Source: Mustelus asterias
Taxonomy: Eukaryota
Direction: 5' to 3'
Assembly: GCF_964213995.1 (NCBI RefSeq)
Contig: NC_135816.1
Coordinates: forward strand, 11,036,001-11,100,000
Length of the DNA stretch: 64,000 bases
Shown here piece by piece: positions 16,101 through 63,597 of the stretch. A model generated the notes under the pieces. That model was not told the DNA's origin and ran no database searches. It saw only the letters and a list, made by a program, of their open reading frames with translations. Each line of letters opens with the position of its first letter. The first letter of the stretch is position 1. Position numbers and translations under genes: made by a program.

Positions 16101-19083
16101 TTAGCATGGTGCATCCACCTAACCTATACATCTTTGGACACTAAGGGGCAATTTAGCATGGCCAATCCACCTAACCTACAGCCTTTTGGACACTAAGGGG
16201 CAATTTAGCATGGCTAATCCATCTAACTTATACATCTTTGGACACTAAGAGGCAATTTAGCATGGCCAATCCACCTAACCTGCATACTTTTGGACACTAA
16301 TGGGCAATTTAGCATGGCCAATCCACCTAACCTACAGCCTTTTGGACACTAAGGGGCAATTTAGCATGGCTAATCCATCTAACTTATACATCTTTGGACA
16401 CTAAGAGGCAATTTAGCATGGCCAATCCACCTAACCTACATACTTTGGACACCAATGGGCATTTCACCAGGGCCAATCCACCTAACCTGAATATCTTTGG
16501 ACCGTAACCCCATGCTTAGGTTCCATCTTATCCCAGAGCTCCGAGACTGCCCCCATGGAATATCAACATTGCTGAGTTCAAAACTGATCTGCTTATTCCA
16601 CACGGGATCACATTCCATAGGAACTCAAGCACAAGATCAGGAATGTTCTAGAATGCTGAGCTTTGAGTGTAGGTTTTCACCTACACATCTTCTCAAGAAA
16701 GGACTCTTAAGTTCTTTTGTTATGCCATTGGAGACTTGTCCAGTGTCCCCTTCACCTTCGTAGAAGCATTACAGTGCAGCAGGAGGCCATTCGGTCCATC
16801 GAGTCTGCACCGATGTTAGGGCGATGGGCCGATGTTAGTCTTTGCTGTGGATGTTAGGATACTGACCCCTCGTTCCCGGTCCCTCAGGATATCCTGATCC
16901 CCTCTCTTACCGGAAAACGTGCAGTCAGCAGAGTTACAAATCCCAACTCCAGAGACGTCTCCCAATCATGTGTGCTTTGAATGGGGAGTTAGAGGCATCA
17001 GTTTTAATGAGGGGGGGAAGCAACAACAGTAATGTGCATTGATATAGCACCTTTAATACAATAAAATATCCCAACCTACTTCACAGGGGTGATGGGCACC
17101 AAGCCACATAAAGGGACACCAGGATAAGCTTGATCAGAAAGTTAACTTTAAAGAAACAGTGAGCTAGGGAGGCAGACAGGGTTATGGAGGAAATTCCAGA
17201 GCCGATGGCCTAGGCAACTGAAGGAACCACTACCAATGGTGCAATTAGAATCAAGAATGCGCAGGAGGTTAGAAAGAGAGGAATGCCGAGACCCCGGAGG
17301 CTTGTAGGGCTGGAGGAGGTGACAGAGATAGGGAAGAAGGAAGAGGCCCATGGAGGAATTTGGGGAAGGAACTGCAAGCAAAGGACCTTGGGGTGTGAAG
17401 AACATCATTCTGATGTCAAACATTGCCTTCCCTCGTCCAGTGCTCAAAGCCGACACCGAGTGTGAGAGACGCCGCAAGCAAGCCGACTTGAAGCCTGGAG
17501 TCTTCCGCCCTAAATGTGATGAGGAGGGCAACTATGAGGTGAAGCAGTGTTGGCCCAGCACGGGGTTCTGTTGGTGCACTTACCCGAATGGAACTCAGAT
17601 CGCAGGAACAGCCAGCCGTCACCAATTAGACTGCAAACGTATGTTTTAGTTTTCTTGCTCTTGGTGTGATTAACAAGTCTCCCATTTCAGAGTAGCTGAT
17701 GCCCACGTGTAGCAAGACCTGGACAATGTTCAGGTTTGGCTGGCTACTGAGGAAATCACTCCATACAAGTGCCCGGCAATGACCATCTCCAGCAAGAGAG
17801 AGAATCTAACCATCTCCTCTTGACATTCGCTGCTATTACTGTTGTGGAATCCCCCGTGTCTCTGAATTACACTAACATTGTCCAGCATTCTGTAATCCTG
17901 CAAAGCAGGCGAGCCTGCAGAGGTTCAAGGCTAGAGCCACTACCCACCTGTGCTACGGATCGCGCTATCATTTGCCCTCTAGATAAGGAAGGTCTGTTGC
18001 ACGTGGTACATGCTCTACCCAAAGAACTTAACAAAGCAAGAAATGAAGAAAGACCTAATGTATTACCCCTACCAATCTCAAAGCCCGTGTACAGGCTATA
18101 ATAAACTCTACGTATCCATTCGTTATCCTCTCACCGCCTATGTGCCCTCCACCCTACCACGGGTTCTCCCCACCCAGCTATGTCCTGAGGGAAAATTCAA
18201 TATAAATGTTCCCTGATGCCAAAAGGTCATTCAGCCCAATGGGTCCGTGGGGTATTTATGTTCTTGACCAACTACCCACCTCCTCCTCTTTACACTCAAT
18301 CTCATCCAAAACCTTGCTGCCCGTTAGCTCCCAAAGAAACAATGCCTCCTTTTCAAAACTCACATCCCAGTCTATGCAACCCATCCTTGTAATTTTAACC
18401 CTGTAAAGTGGGGATGGGGGGAACGTTAGCAGGTAAAGAAAGGGGTGTGTTTTGCTCACTATTTACGGTAATGTTGTTAATGCACCCACCATGGTTTTTT
18501 AACTTTGCCTTTGATGGAAATTGCAGACAGAGTCCCAATTGAACCTCTAAGTTTCTGTCATCTGTGCCTCAATGAGTTAACGCTCTTGTTTCTGAATCGG
18601 AAGGTTGTGGGTTCCACAAACTCAGACTTGAGCACAATCTCCAGGCTGACACTCAGGGGCTTGTCTTGGGTCATTGCCTGTGTGGAGTCTGTGTGTCTGC
18701 GTGGGTTTCCTCCGGGTGCTCCGGTTTCCTCCCACAGTCCAAAGGTGTGTGGTTTAGGTTGATTGGCCATGATAAATTGCCCCTTAGTGTCAGGGAAATT
18801 AGCAGGGTAAATATTTGAGGTTACGGGGATAGCGCCTGGGTGGGATTGTTGTCGGGGCAGGCTCGATGGGCTGAATGGCCTCCTTCTGCACTGTGGGTAT
18901 TCTATGATTCTATAGCCAGTGATGCCTATGTTCTATGAAAGATTTTAAAAAATAAATCTACACAAATTGTTTACATACAGAAACCAGAGGAAAGCAACAT
19001 TTAAAAAAATTGTTGAAATTTCAAAATTTTGTATTAATTGTCAAGCTGATGTGAACTCTTTCTCTTTGATTGCAGCGCACTAA
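979..19083 (+). CDS. CD74: CD74 / MHC class II invariant chain, multi-exon gene, 5'-partial (exon 1 upstream of window); join 979-1157,3883-3965,6844-6906,8343-8438,10099-10207,13592-13699,17441-17638,19076-19083
   Basis: Exons join in one open frame with GT-AG introns: SSTCSRSLLWGGVTVLAAMLIAGQVVSVMFLLKQQ...PVKPKQIMHLRPMMMDMP...TLLEQVQELLKKENTSKAIPEFNSSFSANIDLLRESMTESEWQDFETWLRNWLLFQLIQ...ECERRRKQADLKPGVFRPKCDEEGNYEVKQCWPSTGFCWCTYPNG. Domain order (type II TM with AGQ, CLIP, trimerisation domain, thyroglobulin type-1) and intron phases match vertebrate CD74. Confidence 0.95.
1530..1864 (-). mobile_element. HE1/V-type tRNA-derived SINE, tail type B
   Basis: Head ggcacagtggttagcactgctgcctcacag...ggttcaattcc (A and B boxes), core gggtttcctccgggtgctccggtttcctcccac, tail ...gtaagcccacttgtgacactaat. 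Small internal tandem duplication at about 1630-1680. Confidence 0.85.
1869..2020 (+). mobile_element. Partial HE1/V-type SINE, inverted relative to the adjacent copy
   Basis: B box plus core, running to ccgtgctaaattgcccctta. Confidence 0.8.
3883..3965 (+). CDS. CD74: CD74 exon 3 (CLIP)
   Basis: ttatctcttcag acceptor, aag|gtaact donor, phase 1-0. Encodes (K)PKQIMHLRPMMMDMPISYIDPDNEGPK, a Met/Pro-rich CLIP-like segment. Confidence 0.9.
4018..4409 (+). mobile_element. CR1/HER1-type LINE 3' fragment
   Basis: ERRRLRGDLIEVYKIM and FFTQRVVGAWNSLP C-terminal ORF2 motifs, plus gggccgaagggcctgtt 3' tail. Confidence 0.9.
5710..5996 (+). mobile_element. Penelope-like element terminal repeat (pLTR) fragment
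   Basis: Ends in a hammerhead motif followed by ccaaataaacctgttggactttaacctggtgttgt, which is shared with the 36.8-kb copies. Confidence 0.65.
5922..5958 (+). ncRNA. Minimal type I hammerhead ribozyme motif
   Basis: tcac / CTGATGA / a / ggagc-aac-gctcc / GAAA / gc / TC / gtga: stem I tcac:gtga, 5-bp stem II, palindromic agct in place of stem III, UC cleavage site. Confidence 0.8.
6319..6624 (-). mobile_element. HE1/V-type SINE, tail type A (CR1-like tail)
   Basis: Head and core as in the other copies; tail gatgggccaaatggcctccttct...attctatga. Confidence 0.85.
6844..6906 (+). CDS. CD74: CD74 exon 4
   Basis: Long pyrimidine tract plus cag, donor aag|gtagga, 63 nt, phase 0-0. APKPTPAKPLTLLEQVQELLK resembles the first trimerisation helix (human MTEDHVMHLLQ). 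Not visible in the ORF track in this frame. Confidence 0.85.
7525..7895 (-). mobile_element. Second tRNA-derived SINE family (type C)
   Basis: Reverse complement reads ggcctagtggtatt...gggttcgaatcc...ccatctggttcactaatgtcctttagggaaggaaatctgcc...ggacaataaatgctgg; further copies at 11.96, 13.1, 24.1 and 30.5 kb. Confidence 0.75.
8343..8438 (+). CDS. CD74: CD74 exon 5 (trimerisation domain)
   Basis: 96 nt, phase 0-0, donor cag|gttagt. KENTSKAIPEFNSSFSANIDLLRESMTESEWQ aligns with human [32 protein letters not shown]. Two N-glycosylation sequons (NTS, NSS). Confidence 0.92.
8647..9312 (+). mobile_element. Two CR1-type LINE 3' fragments (about 8647-8876 and 8965-9312)
   Basis: gtgaatctgtggaa / gagatgaggagaaatttcttcac motifs and cagccatgat...gggccga..ggccta tails. 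Confidence 0.75.
9516..9828 (+). mobile_element. HE1/V-type SINE, tail A, full length
   Basis: Runs from ggggcggcacgg to ...gaattctatga. Confidence 0.88.
10099..10207 (+). CDS. CD74: CD74 exon 6 (trimerisation domain C-terminal helix and Pro-rich linker)
   Basis: ttttgtttacag acceptor, g|gtatgt donor, phase 0-1. DFETWLRNWLLFQLIQ matches the FESWMHHWLLFEM motif. Confidence 0.93.
10235..10660 (+). mobile_element. LINE 3' fragment whose tail resembles that of the type C SINE
   Basis: ccatctacaagatgcactgcagcaactcacc...caccaccaccttctcaagggcaa; related copy on the minus strand at 37.6-38.2 kb. Confidence 0.65.
10853..11614 (+). mobile_element. Two HE1/V-type SINEs, tail A (about 10853-11079 partial, 11296-11614)
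   Basis: Core and tail motifs shared with the other copies. Confidence 0.85.
11960..12563 (+). mobile_element. Type C SINE interrupted by a minus-strand V-type SINE, tail B (about 12147-12407)
   Basis: The type C consensus ggttcactaa|tgtcctttag is split by the inserted element. Confidence 0.8.
13115..13460 (+). mobile_element. Type C SINE, full length
   Basis: From cctagtggtattatcactagact to gaatgaataaaaaaaaaa. Confidence 0.8.
13592..13699 (+). CDS. CD74: CD74 additional linker exon encoding a second CLIP-like peptide
   Basis: cattatttgtgtctgcgacag acceptor, aagg|gtaact donor, 108 nt, symmetric phase 1-1, open in the required frame: (G)RMIYSSIVMKPMMANLPDEIKPKEAKSPNVIPALK. Unique sequence between repeats. 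Confidence 0.75.
14450..15216 (+). mobile_element. CR1 3' fragment interrupted by a minus-strand V-type SINE (about 14757-15030)
   Basis: CR1 text gaggctgggtc...ttaagtatgttcaagg is split by the SINE. Confidence 0.75.
15998..16502. repeat. About 52-bp minisatellite, 9-10 copies, derived from a V-type SINE internal segment (minus orientation)
   Basis: Unit ttagcatggccaatccacctaacctacacatctttggacactaaggggcaat is a circular permutation of the SINE segment between core and tail. Confidence 0.92.
17441..17638 (+). CDS. CD74: CD74 thyroglobulin type-1 exon (p41-type cassette)
   Basis: ccttccctcgtccag acceptor, c|gtatgt donor, 198 nt, phase 1-1. Six Cys with FRPKCDEEGNY, QC and CWC-x-x-PNG motifs. 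Confidence 0.95.
18659..18914 (+). mobile_element. HE1/V-type SINE, tail A, 5'-truncated
   Basis: Core and tail motifs. Confidence 0.85.
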
Positions 19084-43696: not shown

Positions 43697-46531
43697 ATCC
43701 GGAACAACGTAGATGAACTTGGGGCGTGGATTGGTACTTGGGACTACGATGTTGTGGCCATTACGGAGACGTGGGTAGAACAAGGACAGGAATGGTTGTT
43801 GGACGTTCCGGGGTATAGATGTTTCACTAAGTATAGGGAAGCTGGTAAAAGAGGTGGAGGAGTGGCATTGTTAATCAAGGATAGTTTAACGGCTGCGGAA
43901 AGGCACTTCGAGGGGGATCTGCACACTGAGGTAATATGGGCTGAGGTTAGAAATAGGAAAGGAGTGGTCAGTTGTTAGGAGTTTACTATAGGCCCCCAAA
44001 TAGTAATAGAGATGTGGAGGAAGAAATTGCTAAGCAGATTATGGATATGTGTGGGGGTCACAGGGTAGTTGTCATGGGGGACTTTAACTTTCCAAATATT
44101 GATTGGAGCCTTTGTAGGTCAAATAGTTCGGATGGGGCAGTTTTTGTGCAGTGTGTGCAGGAGGGTTTCCTGACACAATATGTGGATAGGCCGACAAGAG
44201 GTGAGGCCACATTGGATTTGGTACTGGGAAATGAACCGGGCCAAGTGTTAGATTTGGTTGTGGGAGAGCACTTTGGAGATAGTGACCACAATTCGGTGTC
44301 TTTTGTTATTGCAATGGAGAGGGATAGGGCCGTACGGCAGGGCAAGGTTTACAATTGGGGGAGAGGTAATTATGATGCGATTAGGCAAGAATTAGGGGGC
44401 ATAAGTTGGGAACAGAAACTGTCAGAGAAAGGAACTAATGAAAAGTGGAACTTTTTCAAGGAACAAATACTGGATGTCCTTGATAGGTATGTCCCTGTCA
44501 GGCAGGGAGGAAATGACCGAGTGAGGGAACCATGGTTCACGAAAGAGGTGGAATGTCTTGTGAAAAGGAAGAGGGAAGCTTATGTAGGGATGAGGAAACA
44601 AGGTTCAGATGGTTCGATTGAGGGTTACAAGTTAGCAAGGAATTAGCTGAGAAAGGGGCTTAGGAGAGCTAGGAGGGGACATGATAAGTCCTTGGCGGGT
44701 CGGATCAAGGAAAACCCCAAGGCTTTTTACTCTTATGTGAGGAATAAAAGAATGACCAGGGTGAGGTTAGGGCCGGTCAAGGACAGTAGTGGGAACTTGT
44801 GTATGGAGTCAGTAGAGATAGGCGAGGTGATGAATGAATACTTTTCTTCAGTGTTCACCAAGGAGAGGGGCCATGTTTTTGAGGAAGAGAAGGTGTTACA
44901 GGCTAATAGGCTGGAGGAAATGGATGTTCGGAGGGAGGATGTCCTGGCAGTTTTGAATAAACTGAAGGTCGATAAGTCCCCTGGGCCTGATGAAATGTAT
45001 CCTAGGATTCTTTGGGAGGCAAGGGATGAGATTGCAGAGCCTTTGGCTTTGATCTTTGGGTCCTCACTGTCCACGGGGATAGTGCCAGAAGACTGGAGAA
45101 TGGCGAATGTTGTTCCTCTGTTTAAGAAAGGGAATAGAAATGACCCTGGTAATTATAGACCGGTTAGTCTTACTTCGGTGGTTGGTAAATTGATGGAAAA
45201 GGTCCTTAGGGATGGGATTTACGACCGTTTAGAAAGATGCGGATTAATCCGGGATAGTCAGCACGGATTTGTGAAGGGCAAGTCGTGCCTCACAAATTTG
45301 ATTGAAGTTTTTGAGGAGGTAACTAAGTGTGTTGATGAAGGTAGGGCAGTTGATGTCATATACATGGATTTTAGTAAGGCGTTTGATAAGGTCCCCCATG
45401 GTCGGCTTATGATGAAAGTGAGGAGGTGTGGAATAGAGGGAAAGTTGGCCGATTGGATAGGTAACTGGCTGTCTGATCGAAGACAGAGGGTGGTGGTCAA
45501 TGGAAAATTTTCGGATTGGAGGCAGGTTGCTAGCGGAGTGCCGCAGGGATCAGTGCTTGGTCCTCTGCTCTTTGTGGTTTTTATTAATGACTTAGAGGAG
45601 GGGGCTGAAGGGTGGATCAGTAAATTTGCTGATGACACCAAGATTGGTGGAGTAGTGGATGAGGTGAAGGGCTGTTGTAGGCTGCAAAGAGACATAGATA
45701 GGATGCAAAGCTGGGCTGAAAAATGGCAAATGGAGTTTAACCCTGATAAATGTGAGGTGATTCATTTTGGTAGGACTAATTTAAATGTGGATTACAGGGT
45801 CAAAGGTAGGGTTCTGAAGACTGTGGAGGAACAGAGACATCTTGGGGTTCATATCCACAGATCTCTAAAAGTTGCCACTCAAGTGGATAGAGCTGTGAAG
45901 AAGGCCTATAGTGTGTTAGCTTTTATTAACAGGGGGTTGGAGTTTAAGAGCCGTGGGGTTATGCTGCAACTGTACAGGACCTTGGTGAGACCACGTTTGG
46001 AATATTGTGTGCAGTTCTGGTCACCTCACTATAAGAAGGATGTGGAAGCGCTGGAAAGAGTGCAGAGGAGATTTACCAGGATGCTGCCTGGTTTGGAGGG
46101 TAGGTCTTATGAGGAAAGGTTGATGGAGCTGGGGCTGTTCTCTCTGGAGCGGAGGAGGCTGAGGGGAGACTTAATAGAGGTGTATAAAATGATGAAGGGG
46201 ATAGATAGAGTGAACGTTCAAAGACTATTTCCTCGGGTGGATGGAGCTATTACAAGGGGGCATAACTATAGGGTTCGTGGTGGGAGATACAGGAAGGATA
46301 TCAGAGGTAGGTTCTTTAGTCAGAGAGTGGTTGGGGTGTGGAATGGACTGCCTGCAGTGATAGTGGAGTCAGACACTTTAGAAACATTTAAGCGGTTATT
46401 GGATAGGCACATGGAGCACACCAGGATGATAGGGAGTGGGATAGCTTGATCTTGGTTTCAGATAAAGCTCGGCACAACATCGTGGGCCGAAGGGCCTGTT
46501 CTGTGCTGTACTGTTCTATGTTCTATGTTCT
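43697..46531 (+). mobile_element. Young CR1 LINE with nearly complete ORF2 (APE endonuclease and RT), lacking ORF1
   Basis: VAITETW, GVYYRPP, MGDFNFP and SDHN endonuclease motifs; 585-aa open RT region with QGSVLGP and FADD. One frameshift near 43970 and one stop at 44644-44646; (ttctatg)n tail. Confidence 0.95.
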
Positions 46532-48551: not shown

Positions 48552-49764
48552 TCATAGAGTGATTGAGGTTTACGGCATGGAAACAGGCCCTTTGGCCCAA
48601 CTTGTCCATGCCGCCCTTTTCTTTTAAAAAGCCTAAGCTCGTCCCAATTGCCCGCTTTTGGCCCATATCCCTCCCTTCCCATCTTATCCATATAACTGTC
48701 TAAACACTTTTTAAAAGACAAAATTGTACCCGCCTCTACTACTACCTCTGGCAGCTTGTTCCAGACACTCACCACCCTCTGTGTGAAAAAATTGCCTCTC
48801 TGGACCCTTTTGTCTCTCTTCCCTCTCACCTTAAACCTATGCCCTCTAGTTTTAGACTCCCCTACCTTCGGGAAAAGATATTGACTATCTAGCTGATCTA
48901 TGCCCCTCATTATTTTATAGACCTCTATAAGGTCACCCCTCAGCCTTCTACGCTCCAGAGAAAAAAGTCCCAGTCTATCCAGCATCTCCTTATAACTCAA
49001 ATTATCAAGTCCCGGTAACATCCTAGTAAATCTTTTCTGCACACTTTCTAGTTAAATAACATCCTTTCTATTAAAGGGTGACCAGAACTGTACGCAGTAT
49101 TCCAAGTGTGACCTTACCAATGTCTTGTTCAACTTCAACAAGACATCCCAACTCCTGTATTCAATGTTCTGACCATTGAAACCAAGCATGCCGAATGCCT
49201 TCTTCACCACTCTGTCCACCTGTGACTCCACTTTCAAGCAGCTATGAAGCTGTATCACGAGAACCTCTTTGTTCTATTACTCAACCCAACGCCCGACCAC
49301 TAACTGAGTAAGTCCTGCCTTGGTTCGATCGACCAAAATGCATCACCTCGCATTTATGTAATTTAAACACCCTCTGCCATTCATCGGCCCACTGGTCCAA
49401 TTGATCAAGATCCCGTTGCAATCTGAGATAACCTTCTTCACTGTCCACTATGCCACCGATCTTGGTGTCATCTACAAACTTACTGACAATGCGTACTAAA
49501 TACTCATCCAAATCATTAATATTAATGACAAATAACAGTGGACCAGCACTGATCCCTCAGGCACACCGCTGGTCACAGGTCTCCAGTTTGAAAAACAACC
49601 CTCCACAACCACCCTCACTGGCTTCTGTCATCAAGCCAATTTTGCATCCATTTAGCTACCTCACCCTGGATCCTGTGGGATATAAACTTATGCAAGAAAC
49701 GACCATGCGGCACCTTGTCAAAGGCCTTGCGAAAGCTCATGTAGACAACATCAACCGAACTGCC
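48552..49764 (-). mobile_element. CR1 LINE 3' part, interrupted by the Gypsy array
   Basis: Tail at 48552; RT C-terminal ORFs 48479-49042, 49052-49258 and 49281-49511. Confidence 0.92.
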
Positions 49765-50009
49765 TGTGGTGGACCTCAGTTGTACCTTTGTCCTATATGG
49801 ACCACCGTTGTGTGTGTTTGTCGTACCTGGACACACCCCCTTCCAGTTTGGTTCCTCCCCTCGGCACCTAGTATAAAGGTGGCTGTCTCCTCCCCCTTGT
49901 TCAGTCCAGGACGGTTATTTGTTGGGATCTGCTCCTGATTCTGTTGTTAATAAAAGCCTACACTTGTATTGGCACACCGGTAGTCTTTCGCCTTATTGAT
50001 AGCGCATCA
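49765..50009 (+). repeat. Gypsy LTR 1 (245 bp)
   Basis: tgtggtggac...gcgcatca; contains TATAAA, TCAGT initiator and AATAAA. Confidence 0.95.
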
Positions 50010-50034
50010 ATTTTATTCACAACAGTTGACCAGC

Positions 50035-53000
50035 ATGGAGCAGTTTCTAAAACCCGACAAGTTAGCATTAGACCCTCAAGAGGTTGGAGCCTCTGATAAA
50101 TCCGATCATTGGCTGGACTGCTTCGAAGCATTCGTCGACACCGCTACTGCCATCGACACCGAAGACGCTAAACTCCACGTGCTCCGCGCCCGGGTAAATG
50201 AAGCCGTCTATGGAATCTTCCGGCACGCTGCTACATACGCAGACGCTATCGAACTCCTAAAACGGCAGTTCCGAAAGAGCCCTAACGTGGTTTACGCCAG
50301 TCATCTCCTAACTACCCGCAAGCAGCAGCCAGGAGAATCGGGCGCCCAATTTCTGCGCGCCCTGCGGATCCTAGCTCGAGCTTGTGACTGTAAGGCTGTT
50401 ACAGCAGCTCAGAACACGGAGGACCTGATCCACGACGCCTACGTTGCGGGCATTGAGTCTACATACATCCGGCAGCGCCTGCTGGAACAAGATGACCTAG
50501 ATCTCCGAAGAACAGCCACGATGGCTTAAACATTAGAAGCGGCCTTTCACAATCTCGGGTCTTACCCTGCATCCCGTTCTATCGACGGCTCCACCGCGAC
50601 GGCTGTTCCGGCGGGGCCCAAATGTTACTTTTGCGGCCTACCCAAGCACCGTCGGCGTCGCTGCCCGGCGAAGGACGCGATTTGCTCCGGATGCGGTAAG
50701 CTAGGCCACTTCGTTAAAGTCTGCCGGGCAAAGCCGCTTCCGAAGCCTCGTGGCGCGAGTTCGCGAGAACGTGTGTTCCGCGGGCGCAGCCATCTTTAAT
50801 GCAGGCGGCGGCTGCGCGCGAATCGCCATCTTTAATGCGGTCACCGGAAGCGCGGGAATCGCCATCTTTGATGCGGTCACCGGAAGCGCGGGAATCGCCA
50901 TCTTTGAGACTGGCATCAAGACGTGCTGAGCAGGAAGCTTTATCCGTGACGTCATCAGACGGCGACGAAGATGGATTCTTCTTGGATTCGACGGTGGCAT
51001 CGATTTGCCTGGACCAGTCGCAGCCTCATCAACTCTCCAAGTCAATAATGAAGATCAAGGTAAATGGTCATGCAGAAAACTGCCTGTTCGACTGTGGGAG
51101 CACAGAAAGTTTTATACACCCTCGCACAGTGCGTCAATATGCTCTTCCCGTGCAACCCTGGGGCCAGACCATCTCCATGGCCTCGAATTTCCACTCGGTG
51201 GAGGTCCTCGGGTGCTGTTTGGTGACGCTGACGGTACAGGGCACAGTCTACGAGCGTTTTCGGCTCCTCGTGCTGCCGCGACTCTGCGCAGCTATACTGC
51301 TGGGGTTAGATTTCCTCAGCCATCATAGGAGCGTCACCCTGCAGTATGATGGCCCTTATCCTCTGCTCTCCGTCTGCAAGGTGCCGTCACGGCAGTGCCC
51401 CTCGCGCACCGCCTGCAGTCTCTCGACCCTCAAGATCACCCCCCCCCCCCTTATTTGATAAACTCACCCCGGATAGTAGGCCTATAGCCACCAACAGTAG
51501 GCGCTATAGTGCGGATGACCGGGCCTTCATTCGGTCAGAGGTACAACGGTTGCTCCAGGAAGGGATTATCCAGGCCAGCACCAGCCCCTGGAGGGCGCAA
51601 GTGGTCGTAGTTAAATCGGGGGAGAAACACCGCATGGTAATTGACTACAGCCAGACCATAAACAGGTATACCCAACTAGATGCGTATCCTCTTCCCCGTA
51701 TCGCGGACATAGTCAACCGCATCGCGCACTGTAGGGTTTTCTCGACGGTCGATTTGAAATCGGCTTACCACCAGCTCCCTATCCGCTCGGAGGATCGCCC
51801 ATATCATGTGCCAGCGCCCAACTAGACCAGCTACAGTCCCTCCATAACAACCTCTGTCATCTGGGTGTCACCAGATTTTTCCACTTTGTCAAGTCCCGTA
51901 ACCTGCCCTACTCCCTCGAGGAAGTTCGGACGATTACCAGGCAATCCAGGGTCTGCGCTGACTGCAAACCGCAGTTCTACCGGCCAGGTAGGGCGCACCT
52001 TGTAAGGGCCACTCGCGCGTTTGAGCGCCTTAGCATTGATTCTAAAGGCCCCCTCCCTTCCTCTAACCACAATGTTTATTTCCTGAATATCATTGATGAA
52101 TACTCACGTTTCCCTTTTGCCTTCCCCTGCTCGGACATGACCACGGCTACAGTGATTCGGACCCTGACCACGCTCTTCACCCTGTTCGGCTTCCTAGCCT
52201 ATGTCCATAGCGATCGTGGGTCCTCTTTCATGAGTGACGTGCTGAGGCAGTACCTACTCGCCAAAGGCGTTGCTTCCAGCCGCACCACTTGCTATAACCC
52301 CAGGGGAAATGGTCAAGTAGAGCGGGAGAACGCAACCGTCTGGAAGGCCGTTCTATTAGCACTACGGCCTAGGGGTCTTCCAGTCAGCCGTTGACAAGAT
52401 GTCCTTCCGGACGCATTACATTCCATGAGGTCACTCTTGTGCACGGCGACCAATACGACCCCTCACGAGCGGATGTTTTCGTTTCTCAGCAAGTCCTCCT
52501 CGGGTACTTCACTCCCGGATTGGCTGATGTCCCCGGGGCCCGTCCTGCTTCGGAAGCATGTCCGGACCCATAAGGCAGATCCCTTGGTCGAGGAGGTCCA
52601 ATTGCTCCACGCAAATCCTCAATACGCTTATGTAGCTTACCCTGATGTGCGGGAGGAGACGGTTTCTGTCCGTGACTTGGCACCCGCGGGTGCCCCTGAG
52701 GTCACCACGTCCTTCCGCCCCATGGTCCCTGGTGTTGTCCACTCGGAGACTGCTACGCCTCTTCCTCCCTCAGTCCCTGTCCCCAATGTAGTGTGCCCAG
52801 AGCCTGTTGCGGCCCCCCACCCCCCAGCTCCGGTTCCCACTGTTCCCCATACGCCACCAGGGCCACTGCTCACTCCTCTCGCCCCTGTGTACAGCTCGCT
52901 TGAGTTGCCGGAGCCGTCGCCACGCAGTACCCGACGACTGGACGGGACGACGGATCGGTCCACTTCACACCACTTGGCGCCTTCTCTCGACGCTCACTGT

Positions 53001-53102
53001 ACGGAGCCTGGGCCGACATCGCTCCCTGCTCGGACGACTCTGCGACCTGCACTACGACGATCGCGACGGCGGATCAAGCCACCGGTTCGCCTGGACTTGT
53101 AA
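50035..53102 (+). pseudogene. Gypsy unit 1 gag-pol, disrupted, with about 0.9-kb RT/RNase H deletion
   Basis: Stop at 50527-50529, frameshifts, deletion junction cccatatcatgtgcc near 51800, stop in integrase. Confidence 0.9.
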
Positions 53103-53150
53103 TATTGTTACCGCTTCACCCCCATGTTGTTTTTTAAAGGAAGGGGTGAA

Positions 53151-53395
53151 TGTGGTGGACCTCAGTTGTGCCTTTGTCCTATATGGACCACCGTTGTGTG
53201 TGTTTGTCATACCTGGACACACCCCCTTCCAGTTTGGTTCCTCCCCTCGGCACCTAGTATAAAGGAGGCTGTCTCCTCCCCCTTGTTCAGTCCAGGTCGG
53301 TTATTTGTTGGGATCTGCTCCTGATTCTGTTGTGAATAAAAGCCTACACTTGTATTGGCACACCGGTAGTCTTTCGCCTTATTGATAGCGCATCA
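53151..53395 (+). repeat. Gypsy LTR 2 (245 bp, shared)
   Basis: TATAAA 53258, TCAGT 53287-53291, AATAAA 53335-53340. Confidence 0.95.
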
Positions 53396-53420
53396 ATTTT
53401 ATTCACAACAGTTGACCAGC

Positions 53421-56400
53421 ATGGAGCAGTTTCTAAAACCCGACAAGTTAGCATTAGACCCTCAAGAGGTTGGAGCCTCTGATAAATTCGATCATTGGCC
53501 GGACTGCTTCGAAGCATTCGTCGACACCGCTACGGCCATCGACACCGAAGACGCTAAACTCCACGTGCTCCACGACCGGGTAAACGAAGCCGTCTATGGA
53601 ATCTTCCGGCACGCTGCTACATACGCGGACGCCATCGAACTCCTAAAAGGGCAGTTCCGAAAGAGCCCTAACGTGGTTTACGCCAGACATCTCCTAACTA
53701 CCCGCAAGCAGCAGCCAGGAGAATTGTGCGCCCAATTTCTGCGCGCCCTGCGGGTCCAAGCTCGAGCTTGTGACTGTAAGGCTGTTACAGCAGCTCAGAA
53801 TACGGAGGACCTGATCCGCGACGCCTACGTTGCGGGCATTGAGTCTACATACATCCGGCAGCGCCTGCTGGAACAAGATGACCTAGATCTCCGAAGAACA
53901 GCCACGATGGCTGAAATTTTAGAAGCGGCCTCCCACAATCTCAGGTCTTACCTTCCATCCCGTTCCACCGACGGCTCCACCGCGACGGCTGTTCCGGCGG
54001 GGCCCAAATGTTACTTTTGCGGCTTACCCAAGCACCCTCGGCGTCGCTGCCCGGCGAAGGACGCGATTTGCTCCGGATGCGGTAAGCTAGGCCACTTGGC
54101 TAAAGTCTGCCGGGCAAAGCCGCTTCCGAAGCCTCGTGGCGCCACGTGTGTTCCGCGGGCGCAGCCATCTTTAATGCAGGCGGCGGCTGCGCGCGAATCG
54201 CCATCTTTAATGCGGTCACCGGAAGCGCGGGAATCGCCATCTTTGATGCGGTCACCGGAAGCACGGGGATCGCCATCTTTGAGACTGGCATCAAGACGCG
54301 CTGAGCAGGAAGCTTTATCCGTGAAGTCATCAGACGGCGACGAAGACGGATTCTTCTTGGATTCGACGGTGGCATCGATTTGCCTGGACCAGTCGCAGCC
54401 TCATCAACTCTCCAAGTCAATAATGAAGATCAAGGTAAATGGTCATGCAGAAAACTGCCTGTTCGACTGTGGGAGCACGGAAAGTTTTATACACCCTCGC
54501 ACAGTGCGTCAATATGCCCTTCCCGTGCGACCCTGGAGCCAGACCATCTCCATGGCCTCGAATTTCCACTCGGTGGAGGTCCTCGGGTGCTGTTTGGTGA
54601 CGCTGACGGTACAGGGCACAGTCTACGAGCGTATTCGGCTCCTCGTGCTGCCGCGACTCTGCGCAGCTGTACTGCTGGGGTTAGTTTTCCTCAGCCATCA
54701 TAGGAGCGTCACCCTGCAGTATGATGTCCCTTATCCACCGCTCTCCGTCTGCAAGGCGCCGTCACTGCAGCGCCCCTCGCGCACCGCCTGCAGTCTCTCG
54801 ACCCTCAAGATCACCCCCCCCCCCCCTTATTTGATAACCTCACCTCCGATTGTAGGCCTATAGCCACCAAGAGTAGGCGCTATAGTGCGGATGACCGGGC
54901 CTTCATTCAGTCAGAGGTACAACGGTTGCTCCAGGAAGGGATTATCCAGGCCAGCACCAGCAAGTGGTCGTAGTTAAATCGGGGGAGAAACACCGCATGG
55001 TGATTGACTACAGCCAGACCATAAACAGGTATACCCAACTAGATGCGTATCCTCTTCCCCGTACCGCGGACATAGTCAACCGCATCGCGCACTATAGGGT
55101 TTTCTCGACGATCGATTTGAAATCGGCTTACCACCAGCTCCCTATCCGCTCGGAGGATCGGCCATATCATGTGCCAGCGCCCAACTAGACCAGCTACAGT
55201 CCCTCCATAACAACCTCTGTCATCCGGGTGTCACCAGATTTTTCCACTTTGTCAAGTCCCATAACCTGCCCTACTCCCTCGAGGAAGTTCGGACGATTAC
55301 CAGGCAATGCAGGGTCTGCGCTGAGTGCAAACCGCAGTTCTACCGGCCAGGGAGGGCACACCTTGTAAAGGCCACTCGCGCGTTTGAGCGCCTTAGCATT
55401 GATTTTAAAGGCCCCCTCCCCTCCTCTAACCACAATGTTTATTTCCTGAATATCATTGATGAATACTCACGTTTCCCTTTTGCCTTCCCCTGCTCGGACA
55501 TGACCACGGCTACAGTGATTCGGACCCTGACCTCGCTCTTCACCCTGTTCGGCTTCCCAGCCTATGTCCATAGCGATCGTGGGTCCTCTTTCATGAGTGA
55601 CGAGCTGAGGAAGTACCCACTCGCCAAAGGCGTTGCCTCCAGCCGCACCACTTGCTATAATCCCAGGGGAAATGGTCAAGTAGAGCGGGAGAACGCAACA
55701 GTCTGGAAGGCCGTTCTATTAGCGTTACAGTCTAGGGGTCTTCCAGTCAGCCGTTGACAAGATGTCCTTCCGGACGCATTACATTCCAATAGGTCACTCT
55801 TGTGCACAGCGACCAATACGACCCCTCACGAGCGGATGTTTTCGTTTCTCAGCAAGTCCTCCTCGGGTACTTCACTCCCGGATTGGCTGATGTCCCCGGG
55901 GCCCGTCCTGCTTCGGAAGCATGTCCGGACCCATAAGGCAGATCCCTTGGTCGAGGAGGTCCAATTGCTCCACGCAAATCCTCAATACGCTTATGTAGCG
56001 TACTCTGATGTGCGGGAGGAGACGGTTTCTGTCCGTGACTTGGCACCCGCGGGTGCCCCTGAGGTCACCATGTCTTTCCGCCCCACGGTCCCTGGTGTTG
56101 TCCACTCGGAGATTGCTGCGCCTCTTCCTCCCTCAGTCCCTGTCCCCAATGTAGTGCGCCCAGAGCCTGTTGCAGCCCCCCACCCCCCAGCTCCGGTTCC
56201 CACTGTTCCCCATACGCCACCAGGGCCACTGCTCACTCCTTTCGCCCCTGTGTACAGCTCGCTTGAGTTGCCGGAGCCATCGCCACGCAGTACCCGACGA
56301 CTGGACGGGACGACGGATCGGTCCACTTCACACCACTTGGCGCCTTCTCTCGACGCTCACTGTACGGAGCCTGGGCCGACATCGCTCCCTGCTCGGACGA

Positions 56401-56465
56401 CTCTGCGACCTGCACTACGACGATCGCGACGGCGGATCAAGCCACCGGTTCGTCTGGACTTGTGA
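53421..56465 (+). pseudogene. Gypsy unit 2 gag-pol; gag-protease open, same RT/RNase H deletion as unit 1
   Basis: Open from MEQFLKP through the protease; same deletion junction near 55165 and same integrase stop as unit 1. Confidence 0.9.
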
Positions 56466-56515
56466 TATTGTTTCCGCTTCACCCCCGTGTTCTTTTTTTA
56501 AAAGGAAGGGGTGAA

Positions 56516-56760
56516 TGTGGTGGACCTCAGTTGTGCCTTTGTCCTATATGGACCACCGTTGTGTGTGCTTGTCATACCTGGACACACCCCCTTCCAGTTT
56601 GGTTCCTCCCCTCGGCACCTAGTATAAAGGTGGCTGTCACCTCCCCCTTGTTCAGTCCAGGGCGGTTATTTGTTGGGATCTGCTCCTGATTCTGTTGTGA
56701 ATAAAAGCCTACACTTGTATTTGCACACCGGTAGTCTTTCGCCTTATTGATAGCACATCA
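56516..56760 (+). repeat. Gypsy LTR 3 (245 bp, shared)
   Basis: tgtggtggac...gcacatca. Confidence 0.95.
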
Positions 56761-56785
56761 ATTTTATTCACAACTGTTGACCAGC

Positions 56786-59700
56786 ATGGAGCAGTTTCTA
56801 AAACCCGACAAGTTAGCATTAGACCCTCAAGAGGTTGGAGCCTCTGATAAATTCGATCATTGGCCGGACTGCTTCGAAGCATTCGTCGACACCGCTACGG
56901 CCATCGACACCGACGACGCTAAACTCCACGTGCTCTGCGCCCGGGTAAACGAAGCCGTCTATGGAATCTTCCGGGATGCTGCTACATTCGCGGACGCCAT
57001 CGAACTCCTAAAAGGGCAGTTCCGAAAGAGCCCTAACGTGGTTTACGCCAGACATCTCCTAACTAGCCGCAAGCAGCAGCCAGGAGAATCGTGCGCCCAA
57101 TTTCTGCACGCCCTGCGGGTCCTAGCTCGAGCTTGTGACTGTAAGGCTGTTACAGCAGCTCAGAACACGGAGGAACTGATCCGCGACGCCTACGTTGCGG
57201 GCATTGAGTCTACATACATCCGGCAGCGCCTGCTGGAACAAGATGACCTAGATCTCCGAAGAACAGCCACGATGGCTGAAACGTTAGAAGCGCCCTCTCA
57301 CAATCTCGGGTCTTACCTTGCATCCCGTTCCACCGACGGCTCCACCGTGACGGCTGTTCCGGCGGGGCCCAAATGTTACTTTTGCGGCCTACCCAAGCAC
57401 CCTCGGCATCGCTGCCCGGCGAAGGACGTGATTTGCTCCGGATGCGGTAAGCTCGGCCACTTGGCTAAAGTCTGCCGGGCAAAACCGCTTCCAAAGCCTC
57501 GTGGCGCCACGTGTGTTCCGCGGGTGCAGCCATCATTAATGCAGGCGGCGGCTGCGCACGAATCGCCATCTTTAATGTGGTCACCGGAAGCGCAGGAATT
57601 GCCATCTTTGATGCGGTCACCGGAAGCACGGGGATCGCCATCTTTGAGACTGGCATCAAGACGCGCTGAGCAGGAAGCTTTATCCGTGACGTCATCAGAC
57701 GGCGACGAAGACGGATTCTTCTTTGATTCGACCTTGGCATCGATTTGCCTGGACCAGTCGCAGCCTCATCAACTCTCCAAGTCAATAATGAAGATCAAGG
57801 TAAATGGTCATGCAGAAAACAGCCTGTTCGTCTGTGGGAGCACGGAAAGTTTTATACACCCTCGCACAGTGCGTCAATATGCTCTTTCCCGTGTGACCCC
57901 GGAGCCAGACCATCTCCATGGCCTCGAATTCCCACTCAGTGGAGGTCCTCGGGTGCTGCTTGGTGACGCTGACGGTACAGGGCACAGTCTACGAGCGTTT
58001 TCGGCTCCTCGTGCTGCCGCGACTCTGCGCAGCTGTACTGCTGGGGTTAGATTTCCTCAGCCATCATAGAAGCGTCACCCTGCAGTATGATGGCCCTTAT
58101 CCCCCGCTCTCCGTCTGCAAGGCGCCGTCACGGCAGCGCCCCTCGCGCACCACCTGCAATCTCTCGACCCTCAAGATCACCCCCCCCCCACCCCCCCCCC
58201 CTTATTTGATAACCTCACCCCGGATTGTAGACCTATAGACGCCAGGAGTAGGCGCTATAGTGCGGATGACCGGGCCTTCATTCGGTCCGAGGTACAACGG
58301 TTGCTCCAGGAAGGGATTATCCAGGCCAGCACCAGCCCCTGGAGGGCGCAAGTGGTCGTAGTTCAATCGGGGGAGAAACACCGCATGGTGATTGACTACA
58401 GCCAGACCATAAACAGGTATACCCAACTGGATGCGTATCCTCTTCCCCGTACCGCGGACATAGTCAACCGCATCGCGCACTATAGAGTTTTCTCGACGAT
58501 CGATTTGAAATCGGCTTACCACCAGCTCCCTATCCGCTCGGAGGATCGCCCATATACTGCCTTTGAGGCGGATGGCCGCCTCTACCAGTTCCTCCGAGTC
58601 CCCTTTGGTGTCACCAATGGGGTCTCAGTCTTCCAGCGGGCCATGGATCAAATGGTAGACCAGCACGGGCTACGGGCCACTTTCCCGTATCTGGATAACG
58701 TCACCATCTGCGGCCATGACCTGCAGGATCATGATGCCAACCTACAAAAATTCCTTCGTACGGCCACTCTCCTGAACCTCACATATAATGAGACGAAGTG
58801 TGTTTTCCGGGCACGCCGCCTCGCCATCCTTGGGTACGTGATAGAAAATGGTGTCCTTGGCCCCGACCCAGCCCGTATGCGTCCCCTTATGCAGCTTCCC
58901 CTTCCTACTACCCTCAAAGCACTGAAGAGATGCCTGGGCTTCTTCTCCTACTATGCCCAGTGGGTTCCCCGTGATGCAGATAAAGCCCGTCCACTCCTAA
59001 AATCGACCTCTTTTCCCCTGGCGGAGGAGGCCCGTCAGGCCTTCGACGACATCAAAGCGGACATCGCGAAGGCCGCGATGCATCTGTGGACGAATCCATC
59101 CCATTCCAACTGGAAAGTGATGCGTCTGAATTGGCCCTAGCCGCCACCCTTAACCAGAGGGGCCGTCCAGTGGCCTTCTTTTCCCGGACCTTACAAGGCC
59201 CTGAGATTCGACACTCCTCGGTCGAGAAGGAGGCCCAGGCCATCGTGGAAGCCGTCCGGCACTGGCGCCATTATCTTGCGGGCCAACAATTCACCTTAAT
59301 TACCGACCAGCGGTCAGTTGCCTTCCTGTTTAACACCAGGCAAAAGGGTAAGATTAAGAATGACAAGATCTTGCGGTGGAGGATTCAGCTCTCCACCTAC
59401 AGATATGACATCATGTACCGGCCCGGGAAGCTCAATGAGTCCCCAGATGACCTGTCCAGTGGATCATGTGCCAGCGCCCAACTAGACCAGCTACAGTCCC
59501 TCCATAACGACCTCTGTCACCCGGGTGTCACCAGATTTTTCCATTTTGTCAAGTCCCGTAACCTGCCCTTCTCCCTCGAGGAAGTCCGGACGATTACCAG
59601 GCAATGCAGGGTCTGCGCTGAGTGCAAACCGCAGTTCTACCGGCCAGGTAGGGCGCACCTTGTAAAGGCCACTCGCGCTTTTGAGCGCCTTTGCATTGAT

Positions 59701-60762
59701 TTTAAAGGCCCCCTCCCCTCCTCTAACCGCAATGTTTATTTCCTGAATATCATTGATGAATACTCACGTTTCCCTTTTGCCTTCCCCTGCTCGGACATGA
59801 CCACGGCTACAGTGATTCGGTCCCTGACCACGCTCTTCACCCTGTTCGGCTTCCCAGCCTATGTTCATAGCGATCGTGGGTCCTCTTTCATCAGTGATGA
59901 GCTGAGGCAGTACCTGCTCGCCAAAGGCGTTGCCTCCAGCCGCACCACTAGCTATAACGCCAGGGGCAATGGTCAAGGAGAGCGGGAGAGCGCAACCGTC
60001 TGGAAGGCCGTTCTATTAGCGTTACGGTCTAGGGGCTTTCCAGTCAGCCGTTGGCAAGACGTCCTTCCGGACGCATTACATTCCATTAGGTCACTCTTGT
60101 GCACAGCGACCAATACGACCCCTCACGAGCGGACGTTTTCTTTCCCCAGGAAGTCCTCCTCGGGTACTTCGCTCCCGGATTGGCTGATGTCCCCGGGGCC
60201 CGTTCTGCTTCGGAAGCATGTCTGGACCCATAAGGCAGATCCCTTGGTCGAGGAGGTCCAATTGCTCCACGCTAATCCTCATTACGCTTACGTACTGCAC
60301 CCTGATGGGTGGGAGGACATGGTTTCTGTCCGTGACTTGGCACCCGCGGGTGCCCCTGAGGTCACCACGTCCTTCCGCCCCACGGTCCCTGGTGTTGTCC
60401 ACTCGGAGATTGCTTCGCCTCTTCCTCCCTCCGTCCCTGTCCCCAATGTAGTGTGCCCAGAGCCTGTTGCAGCCCCCCACCCCCTAGCTCCGGTTCCCAC
60501 TGTTCCCCATACGCCACCAGGGCCACTGCTCACCCCTCTCGCCCCTGTGTACTGCTTGCTTGAGTCGCCGGAGCCGTCGCCACGCAGTACCCGACGACTG
60601 GACGTGACGACGGATCGGTCCGCTTCACACCATCTGGCGCCTTCTCTCGACACTCACTGTACGGAGCCTGGGCCGACATCGCTCCCTGCTCGGACGACTC
60701 TGCGACCTGCACTACGACGATCGCGACGGCGGATCAAGCCACCGGTTCGTCTGGACTTGTAA
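56786..60762 (+). pseudogene. Gypsy unit 3 gag-pol, full domain set with a few frameshifts
   Basis: RT (IDLKSAYHQ, PFGVTN, YLDN), RNase H (LESDAS, EKEAQA, ITDQRS), integrase HHCC and D,D,E (IDFKG, HSDRG, GERE). Confidence 0.93.
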
Positions 60763-60811
60763 TATTGTTTCCGCTTCACCCCCGTGTTGTTTTTTTAAAG
60801 GAAGGGGTGAA

Positions 60812-61056
60812 TGTGGTGGACCTCAGTTGTGCCTTTGTCCTATTTGGACCACCGTTGTGTGTGCTTGTCATACCTGGACACACCCCCTTCCAGTTTGGTT
60901 CCTCCCCTCGGCACCTAGTATAAAGGTGGCTGTCTCCTCCCCCTTGTTCAGTCCAGGTTGGTTATTTGTTGGGATCTGCTCCTGATTCTGTTGTGAATAA
61001 AAGCCGACACTTGTCTTGGCACACCGGTAGTCTTTCGCCTTATTGATAGCGCATCA
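60812..61056 (+). repeat. Gypsy LTR 4 (245 bp, terminal)
   Basis: Follows the PPT; ends gcgcatca and is followed directly by CR1 sequence. Confidence 0.95.
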
Positions 61057-63597
61057 CCAGCACTGATCCCTCAGGCACACCGCTGGTCACAGGTCTCCAG
61101 TCTGAAAAACAACCCACCACATCCACCCTCTCTGGCTTCTGTCATCAAGCCAATTTTGTATCCATTTAGCTACCTCACCCCGGATCCCGTGGGATATAAC
61201 CTTATGCAAGAAACGACCATGCGGTACCTTGTCAAAGGCCTTGCTAAAGTCCATGTAGACAACATCAACCGAACTGCCCTCATCGGCCTTCTTGGTTACC
61301 CCTTCTGTTATCAAGCCAATTCTGTATCCATTTAGCTACCTGGATCCTGAGGGATTTAACTTTAGACAGCAACCTACCAGGTGGCACTTTGTCGAAGGCC
61401 TTGCTAAAGTGTATGTGGACAACGTCAACTGCACTGCCCTCATCGACCTTCTTGGTTACCCCTTCAAAAATCTCAATCAAATTTGTGAGACATGATTTTC
61501 CACTTACAAAGCCATGCTGATTATCCCGAATCGGTCCTTGCATCTCTAAATGCCGATAGATCTTGTCTCTCAAAATACATTCCAACAACTGACCCACCAC
61601 AGATGTGAAGTTTACCGGCCTGTAGTTCCCAGGCTTTTCCCTGCAGTCCTTTTTAAACAGAGGCACAACATTTGCCACTCTCCAATCTTCAGGCACCTCA
61701 CTTGTAACTAACGATGATTCAAATATCTCTGCTCGGGGATCCGCAATTTCCTCCCCAACCTCTCACAATATCCTGGGATACACTTCATCAGGTCCCGGGG
61801 ACTTATCTACCTTGATGCTCTTTAATACTTCCAGCACCTCCTCTTGTTATATGTGCACTGCTCAAGACATCACTATTTATTTCCCCAAGTTCCCTAACAT
61901 CCATGCCTTTCTCAACAGTAAATACTGATGAGAAATATTCATTTAGGATCTCACCCATCTCTTGTGGATCCACACATAGGTGACCAGGTTGATCCTTAAG
62001 AGGCCCTACTCTGTCCCTCGTCACTCTTTTGGCTTTTATGTATTTGCGGAAGCTCTTTGAATTCTCCTTTGCCTTATCTGCCAAACAATCTTGTGTCCCC
62101 ATTTTGCCCGCCTGATTTCCCTCTTAACTCGACTCCTACACCCCCTATACTCTTCAAGGGATTCACTTGATCCCAGCTGCCCATGCATGTCATGTGCTTT
62201 CTTCTTCTTGACCAGGTCCGCAATATCCTGAGTCGTCCAGGGTTCCCTACTTATACCAGCCTTGCCCTTCACTCAGGGTGGAATGTGCTTACCCTGAACA
62301 CAGGTTAACATACTTTTGAAAACCTCTCACTTTCCAGGCGTCCATTTGCCTTCCCACAGACTCCCCCAATTAACTTCTGAAAGTTCCTGCCTGATACCAT
62401 CAAAATTGGCTTGCCCCAATTTATAATTTTAACTTATGGGCCAAACCTATCAATCTCTGTAGCTATCTTAAAACCAAGAGAATTATGGTCACTGATCCCA
62501 AAGTGATCCCTCACTAACACTTCTGTCACCTGCCCGTCCTTATTTCCCAAGAGGAGGTCAAGTTTTGCCCCCTCTCTGGTCGGGCCATCCACATACTGAA
62601 TGAGAAATTCCTTCTGGATACACTCAACAAATTTCTCTCCATCCAACCCTCTAATACTACGGCTGTCCCAGTCATTGTTGGGAAAGCTAAAATCCCCTAC
62701 TAATACTACCCAATTTTTCTTGGAGCTATCTGTAATCTCCTTTCATATTTCCTCCTCAATTTCCCGCTGACTATTTGGGGGGCTATAGTACAACCCAATC
62801 AAAGTGATTTCCCCCTTCTTATTTCTCAGTTCTACCCAAATAGATTCAGTGGCCAAACCCTCGCATATATCCTCTCTCAGAACTGCCGTGATGTTTCCCC
62901 TAATCAAACGTGCAATTCCCTCTCCTCTCTTACCTCCTGTTCTATCTTTCCTATAGCACCTGTACCTGTCCTGTCCCTCCCTTAGCCATGTTTCAGGAAT
63001 TGCTATAGTATCCCATGTACCCATCCATTCCCTGAGTTCATCTGCCTTGCCCATCAGGCCTCTTGCAGTGAAATAAATGCAGTTTAGTCTGGACTTCCCT
63101 TGCTCTCTGCTCTGCTTTTGCCTGATCTGTCTGGTACCAGGATTACTGACACTGCCTTTATTATTTAGTGTGCTCTCTTTAATTTTTGTGCTGTCCTCAA
63201 CCTTCTCTTCTGTCTCCCTACTGCTTTGGGTCCCATCCTCCTGCCAAATAAGTTTAAACCCTCCCGAGTGGCTCGAGCAAATCCCCCCATCAGGATATCA
63301 GTCCCCCTCCAGTTCAGGTGTAACCCGTCCCTCTTGAACAGGTCACCCCTTCCCCAGAAGAGATCCCAATGATCCAAAAATCTAAATCCCTGCCCCCTGC
63401 ACCAGCTCGCAAGCCACACATTCATCTGCCTAATCTTCCTATTCCTATTCTCATTGGCACAGGCCACCGATAGTAGTCCAGAAATTACTATCATCGTGGT
63501 CTGGCACTTTAGCCTTTTGCCTAACTCTCCATATTCACACTTCAGGACCTCATCCCTTTTCATGCCTGTGCCATTGGTACCAATATGTACAACGACC
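61057..63597 (-). mobile_element. CR1 LINE 5' part: RT N-terminus, endonuclease and partial ORF1 (SGNH esterase-like)
   Basis: DWRVANVVPLFKK, IGLYYSPP and SDHN motifs; ORF1 remnant VVVHIGTN...FLDHWDLFWGRGDLFKRDGLHLN. Confidence 0.92.

Follow-up and report, generated by a model that had tools for sequence, protein, structure and literature searches.

Probable self-priming of reverse transcription in a widespread Gypsy lineage without a chromodomain

Introduction

We describe a widespread lineage of Gypsy retrotransposons without a chromodomain in which a stretch of the element's own long terminal repeat (LTR), and not a tRNA, probably primes reverse transcription. This reading is based on sequence comparison around a window of 64,000 nucleotides from Mustelus asterias (NCBI RefSeq assembly GCF_964213995.1, contig NC_135816.1, positions 11,036,001 to 11,100,000 of the forward strand). 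Coordinates below are those of the window, and all element features lie on its plus strand. An arm within the LTR pairs with the sequence directly behind the LTR in a register set at one base beyond where the LTR stops, both sides covary among relatives, and a TGG-initiated primer site is absent.

Self-priming has so far been viewed as a mark of the Tf1/sushi chromoviruses and a few plant lineages. In Tf1, the primer is 11 nt long and is cut by RNase H. Self-priming is reported as proven for this yeast element (10.1101/2022.12.06.519325, PMC4600332), with cleavage of the self-primer by the element's RT (PMC5341516). Further papers describe self-priming in Tf1/sushi, Tcn1 and TAR/Houba; for Skipper, for GalEa of fungi and for TRIMs of bivalves, they describe non-tRNA primer sites that lack an explanation (PMC5006619, PMC6934838, PMC3601003, PMC6317226, PMC6238403). 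No published report of self-priming in a non-chromoviral animal Gypsy lineage was found in a literature search that lay outside subscription journals, Repbase and GyDB.

Collection of related elements

Protein searches of the shark's own genome, followed by fetching of the matches, yielded 90 loci with other gag types, which were grouped by eye into seven families including the window family. From a metagenome scan, the best 80 of 484 confirmed loci were taken; 51 had a gag start and were likewise sorted by eye into 31 families, and the 29 loci without a gag start were left out of the family set. The 38 family representatives (seven from the shark genome, 31 from metagenome contigs) are related to each other to varying degrees, six metagenome families exceeding 75% Gag identity. 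Named protein relatives of the lineage come from sharks, rays, cnidarians, molluscs, arthropods and nematodes, among them a sea slug, insects and mantis shrimp (hosts other than sharks known from protein matches only), and the closest named matches of the window element come from sharks and rays. No relative was found in the viral contigs searched. Other Gypsy lineages of the shark genome, fetched as a control, were too decayed for their LTRs or primer sites to be read. For the analysis of coupled changes, a gag tree of 72 shark copies was used, leaving out four duplicates, four damaged loci and 11 distant or partial-type copies.

Element architecture and classification

Positions 49765-61056 hold three Gypsy units with four common 245-bp LTRs, which differ at 5-9 positions in each pairwise comparison; the host genome measures 3.68 Gb. 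LTR1 (49765..50009) is followed by a primer site and by the internal region of unit 1 (50010..53150), in which 908 bp of the RT region are deleted, as they are in unit 2. A polypurine tract, recognized from the sequence, lies at 53136..53150 ahead of LTR2 (53151..53395), which runs from TG to CA and is common to units 1 and 2; the same tract stands 5' of the 3' LTR in most dispersed copies. The gag-protease frame of unit 2 (53421..54863) encodes a double zinc knuckle and an aspartyl protease. LTR3 (56516..56760), again with a primer site behind it, opens unit 3, the internal region of which (56761..60811) is full length and encodes gag, protease, RT (YLDN), RNase H and integrase, broken up over three frames and without a chromodomain. 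The 3' LTR, LTR4 (60812..61056), has no primer site behind it.

The gene order gag-PR-RT-RNase H-integrase without env, the 245-bp TG...CA LTRs, the polypurine tract and the short target duplication are Ty3/Gypsy features found in the family, and the best relative of solved structure is the Ty3 RT (E 7.6e-36). An earlier note on this DNA had called the element a non-chromovirus, which agrees with the lack of a chromodomain in the window integrase frames and in nine out of nine long relatives (E 0.05). A double zinc knuckle occurs in 71 of 74 long relatives and is suggestive only as a mark of the Mag lineage. The second aspartate of the RT catalytic motif is normally regarded as catalytic. In the window, the motif belongs to the RT frame at 58091-59140; among the relatives (P0062-P0180), it reads YxDN in 99 of 119 and YxDD or FxDD in 20. 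A literature search had no paper with a YLDN or YXDN motif among those listed.

Pairing between LTR arm and primer site

The sequence at 53397..53411, separated from the terminal CA of LTR2 by a single A (53396), is the exact reverse complement of 53327..53341 (15/15), as the earlier note had stated. By this pairing, the former is a putative primer binding site that the arm of the element itself could occupy; the latter, the predicted self-primer arm, has its 3' end at 53341 and contains AATAAA at 53335-53340. The bases after the predicted cut (53342..53346) are conserved and are usually the first bases of a helix. LTR1 and LTR3 indeed show the same arrangement with a single mismatch (14/15 each), and LTR4, with host DNA behind it, has an arm match of only 4/15. 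Among the 30 best LTR-plus-leader copies in the genome, arm and site match at 15/15 in 27 and at 14/15 in three. Within the 160 nt ahead of gag, the longest perfect inverted repeat measures 15 bp; 30 dinucleotide shuffles yielded at most 9 bp. The RNA from 53289 to 53440 folds at -43.8 kcal/mol (z = -2.98), with equally stable folds in 2 of 200 shuffles.

Two further helices had been proposed. The outer stem, in which CTGCTCC (53315..53321) pairs with GGAGCAG in the gag start region (53423-53429, overlapping the gag ATG), is present and conserved in sharks with one compensatory change. Its core, GCTCC or GTTCC, occurs in most of 83 shark loci; L091 is altered on both sides and L112 carries a G-U form. 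The 6-bp hairpin across the LTR end (ATTGAT 53381-53386, ATCAAT 53392-53397) is real in the window family and not conserved: its 5' arm is intact in ~52 of the 83 shark loci and reads ATCAAT in 14. Given this poor conservation, the hairpin was rejected as an essential part. An Rfam search of 53100-53600 (E 1) revealed no known RNA family or ribozyme, and neither a transcript start nor a poly(A) site was visible in four contig runs over 53000-54300.

Register and covariation across the lineage

In an unanchored search, the longest perfect inverted repeat exceeded that of all 30 shuffles in 31 of 38 representatives. For the 24 loci in which both LTRs were found, it starts two bases past the end of the LTR pair in 14, one base past it in three and elsewhere in seven. 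When anchored one base past a CA, the pairing reaches 10 or more Watson-Crick pairs out of 12 in 34 of the 38 representatives, the remainder being L154, L159, L167 and L177. These 34 pairing families share a median Gag identity of 42% and carry 33 distinct arms (compared as 13-mers), and their perfect arm/site runs have a median of 14 bp. An arm matches its own site at a mean of 11.7/12 positions and the site of another family at 7.0/12, with 11 or more matches in 14 of 1122 cross-pairings. The covariation of the arm/site helix that the earlier note had proposed to look for in related families thus extends across the lineage; one shark family, for instance, has ATTAAA in the arm and a matching change in the site. 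At pairing positions 2-11, 337 of 340 pairs are Watson-Crick and one is G-U, a strictness that is partly by construction, as the anchored scan fixes the site one base after a CA and selects on Watson-Crick pairs. G-U forms do occur in the outer stem and the post-arm helix, and are nearly absent from the arm/site helix. The absence of a tRNA-type primer site also held: the number of families with a site beginning in TGG close behind the LTR is 0/34.

Some letters are shared between families. The spacer base is A in 31/34, and G at arm position -10 (53332 in the window) is kept in 32/34, including all seven shark families. Behind the arm, position +1 is a purine in 33/34, +2 a C in 30/34 and +3 a C in 31/34, and at least three of the first four post-arm bases are paired in 25/34 folds. 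Since arm letters are conserved to this degree (cross-family mean 7/12), some sequence-specific role of the arm also exists.

Coupled evolution of arm and site

When retroelements make their plus strand, the primer is copied and the copy becomes the primer site; a self-primer should therefore carry its site along with it. In the gag tree, the arm changed on internal branches 3, 3, 2 and 1 times at positions -8, -9, -11 and -13, and the site changed 3, 3, 2 and 1 times at the same positions (nine changes each); the other positions from -1 to -13 show no internal-branch changes. Third codon positions of gag average 1.43 internal-branch changes, a value that two arm positions exceed. Changes on both sides thus occur as fast as those at single sites or faster, and several are transversions, a pattern that would be hard to reach by selection alone. 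The coupled changes fit copying of the primer into its site, which makes self-priming likely. About half of Tf1 cDNA is described as keeping a copy of the primer site at its end (PMC11042837).

Individual copies add detail. The metagenome copy L136 differs from its four siblings by 26 private changes in ~4200 sites, of which one affects the arm in each of the two LTRs and another is its exact complement in the site; by our own estimate this would arise by chance in ~0.2% of cases, for a pattern noticed after the fact. In L145, L114 and L063, the arm is altered in both LTRs and the site is unaltered, which is the first step expected if the arm changes before the site. L071 and L073 carry the letter of a sister subfamily in the 5' arm only, which is unpredicted by a simple self-priming model. 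In L066, a letter found in this copy alone occurs in the 5' arm and in the site and is absent from the 3' LTR. In L071/L267, L073/L268 and L066/L265, subfamily-type letters differ between the 5' and 3' LTR arms; the 5-bp duplication is intact in L073 and near-intact in L066. Such 5'/3' mismatches may stem from plus-strand transfer between molecules or from later conversion.

Transcription start and primer geometry

Both promoter motifs named in the earlier note are present: a predicted TATA box (TATAAA, 53258..53263) and, from TCAGT at 53287, an initiator-like site (53287..53292) with a predicted start at 53289. TATAAA is found in all seven shark family representatives, 31-34 nt ahead of the initiator-like site, which in turn lies 51-53 nt ahead of the 3' end of the arm in five families and 64 and 74 nt ahead of it in two. 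The proposal of a primer made from an internal R segment fits this spacing in the sharks (7/7 families) and suits the other families less well, as they look more Tf1-like. We lean slightly towards a shark primer that is a 5' fragment of ~53 nt with an internal 3' end, a reading supported by the position of the TATA box and initiator together with the conserved outer stem. No mechanism was found for trimming the ~38-nt unpaired plus-strand tail that such a 53-nt primer would leave.

The 27 non-shark representatives mostly have A at -11 (21), G at -10 (25), a pyrimidine at -9 (24) and T at -13 (19), and a TATA box at a fitting distance was found in none. These letters at -13 to -9 resemble an initiator and speak for a primer of the Tf1 kind, placed at the 5' end of the RNA. 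Pairing at -12 and -13 is kept in 24 of the 27. Polymerase and RNase H sites are reported to be spaced 13 bp apart in Ty3 (PMC5371799), and by analogy we infer that the reach of the pairing to -13 may be linked with this spacing. A TACCT-type motif stands upstream of the arm in the window (~53208-53215) and in the U3 of L122, L137, L147 and L181; its opposite strand is splice-donor-like.

Masking of the poly(A) signal

Of the 34 families, 22 carry an AATAAA or ATTAAA hexamer within the arm, four have it in the loop alone and eight have it in neither place. In all 20 families folded of these 22, opening the hexamer costs more when the primer site is present (mean 6.6 versus 1.4 kcal/mol); in the window family, the difference is small (7.0 versus 3.5-4.5 kcal/mol). 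Folding thus favors the earlier suggestion that the helix silences the 5' poly(A) signal, and the 12 arms without a hexamer rule it out as the lineage-wide reason for the helix. Masking is at most a secondary role; as a side benefit where the arm holds the hexamer, it seems plausible from the modeled folds, with slightly more doubt than belief on our part. AAUAAA lies within a helix on the 5' side of HIV-1 RNA as well (PMC2645353). That hairpin forms at both ends of the RNA, and HIV-1 is primed by a tRNA. The shark helix would form only at LTRs followed by internal sequence, because its partner strand lies outside the LTR.

Mechanism and alternative explanations

Under self-priming, folding of the RNA would place the R arm on the primer site, and a nuclease cut after the arm (53341/53342), by analogy with Tf1 made by the element's RNase H, would free a 3' end aimed at U5. 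An RNase H domain is present in the element and its relatives, its activity being predicted only. The stretch of R from the cut to the poly(A) site, about 20 nt, would remain for use in the first strand transfer, and plus-strand synthesis would copy the primer back into the site, so that a new arm letter would appear in the site within two rounds. The full combination is rather unlikely to hold in every part: an animal-wide Gypsy lineage that evolved self-priming independently of Tf1/sushi, a shark primer whose cut within R falls precisely where the poly(A) signal stops, a single helix that primes, conceals this signal at the 5' LTR alone and covers the gag start codon, a primer that rewrites its site every cycle, and a natural YxDN RT.

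A variant closer to Tf1, in which the RNA that is packaged starts inside the arm and only its first 10-11 nt serve as primer, deserves real weight, with the balance tilting against it. It would account for the initiator-like letters and missing TATA box in the non-shark representatives and for the G at -10 in all seven shark families; with such a primer, the copy made on the plus strand would be flush with the site, and Tf1-type primers are described at the RNA 5' end (10.1101/2022.12.06.519325). However, pairing extends beyond -11 (24/27 at -12 and -13, median run 14), the shark TATA box and initiator lie 51-74 nt upstream in 7/7 families, and in sharks the outer stem (-21 to -27) has been kept, in one case through a compensatory change, so that this stretch is likely transcribed. 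That the helix is instead a regulatory structure over the 5' poly(A) signal or gag start codon, with priming by something else, appears improbable. The hexamer in most arms, its costlier opening in every family folded and the HIV-1 hairpin over AAUAAA, which is reported to repress 5' polyadenylation (PMC2645353), are in its favor; yet 12 arms lack the hexamer, which in four of these families sits in the loop outside the arm/site helix, the energy asymmetry of the window family is small, and regulation leaves the one-base register, the scarcity of G-U pairs, the fast coupled changes and the missing other primer site unexplained.

Priming by a host RNA (a tRNA fragment or other small RNA), with an incidental LTR match, draws on the half-tRNA primers described in copia lineages (PMC6317226) and on the arm positions conserved between families. 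It is largely refuted by the family-specific covariation in these sequences, and we consider it very improbable: the 34 families have 33 different arms, each of which fits its own LTR and rarely that of another, letters change jointly on the two sides between subfamilies of a single genome, and TGG is absent. A genomic search for the arm followed by CCA gave 0 matches, which is a weak test as CCA is added after transcription. Just as improbable is that covariation results from DNA-level correction between the inverted repeats after insertion, the helix having no role in priming. L066, with its private letter in the 5' arm and site, its unaltered 3' LTR and its near-intact 5-bp duplication, is what such correction could leave behind, whereas the L136 change is present in both LTRs and the site, the internal-branch changes are inherited by whole subfamilies, and correction would not set the register at the end of the LTR, while a primer would still be required.

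Comparison with known elements

Like Tf1/Tf2, Tj1 and other Tf1/sushi elements, the present lineage has a primer site right behind the 5' LTR and complementary to its own LTR transcript. It also shares with Tf1/sushi the Ty3/Gypsy gene order and helices flanking the cut, the latter described as a 'pretzel' (10.1101/2022.12.06.519325). It differs in lacking a chromodomain, in its double zinc knuckle and mostly YxDN RT, in a paired stretch of usually 13-16 bp and in an arm whose end falls within or close to a poly(A)-type hexamer. The shark arm is furthermore predicted to lie ~40 nt inside the transcript and not at its 5' end, and an extra helix reaches the gag start. The lineage is thus likely Tf1-like in its mode of priming, judging by these comparisons, and not a member of Tf1/sushi. 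The TAR/Houba/Osr-1 Ty1/copia elements and Tcn1 of plants offer a parallel in that lineage-wide self-priming was, as reported, predicted from LTR complementarity alone (PMC6317226); they belong to the copia superfamily or the chromoviruses and have plant hosts.

The Mag lineage and the Cigr-1 clade are, like the present lineage, non-chromoviral animal Gypsy elements. Mag has a double knuckle, and Cigr-1 a single frame of 1.2 kaa and short LTRs. Mag-lineage elements carry tRNA primer sites, unlike the present lineage. Cigr-1 is placed under Mag in one supplement (PMC6238403 supplement 1).

If self-priming holds, an abundant non-chromoviral self-primed lineage would mean either a separate origin or an old shared trait; element finders that demand a tRNA site would miss such elements, and control by tRNA fragments would likely be escaped. 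Coupled arm/site changes would provide a genomic test of self-priming even where no element is active. From the geometry in sharks arise the questions whether an internal primer can be cut and trimmed, and whether one helix can solve both priming and the 5' poly(A) problem.

Tandem arrays and neighboring sequence

The earlier note had predicted a tendency to form tandem arrays, which the genome does not bear out. All 29 other best copies have unique upstream flanks, and the window copy is the only one among the 30 best LTR-plus-leader copies with internal sequence upstream of its LTR. A query with the LTR junction, for which 40 of 4044 candidates were scored, gave two full junctions and one partial junction beyond the two of the window; one locus, L286 (G000:C6:93754800-93764799), is an older full-length tandem dimer with one shared LTR and a normal 5-bp duplication. 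Dispersed copies are single and up to 4.5 kb long. In 17 of 20 dispersed copies fetched, a second LTR lies within 6.5 kb, with an exact 5-bp duplication in 14 of these 17, and the 908-bp RT deletion of units 1 and 2 was seen in 0/20. With copies single and junctions few, the tendency was rejected. Tandems with a shared LTR are described as products of recombination in Tf1 and many other elements (PMC11042837).

At the flanks of the window array, a duplication of 222 bp of host DNA (left copy 49543..49764, right copy 61057..61278, 12 differences) replaces the usual 5-bp duplication of the family. It could result from aberrant integration of a concatemer or from recombination between two nearby insertions. 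Depth in contig runs X3 and X5 is several times greater over LTR bins than over internal ones, which suggests many solo LTRs; contig depth is a poor measure of copy number. Within gag, a 36-bp tandem repeat (54164-54282, with equivalents in units 1 and 3) encodes a RESPSLMRSPEA-type peptide and varies in copy number. Elsewhere, the window contains a LINE-type element with endonuclease and RT frames (43957-46449), tandem repeats with periods of 25 bp (48-497) and 52 bp (15945-16516), and numerous SINE-like copies throughout.
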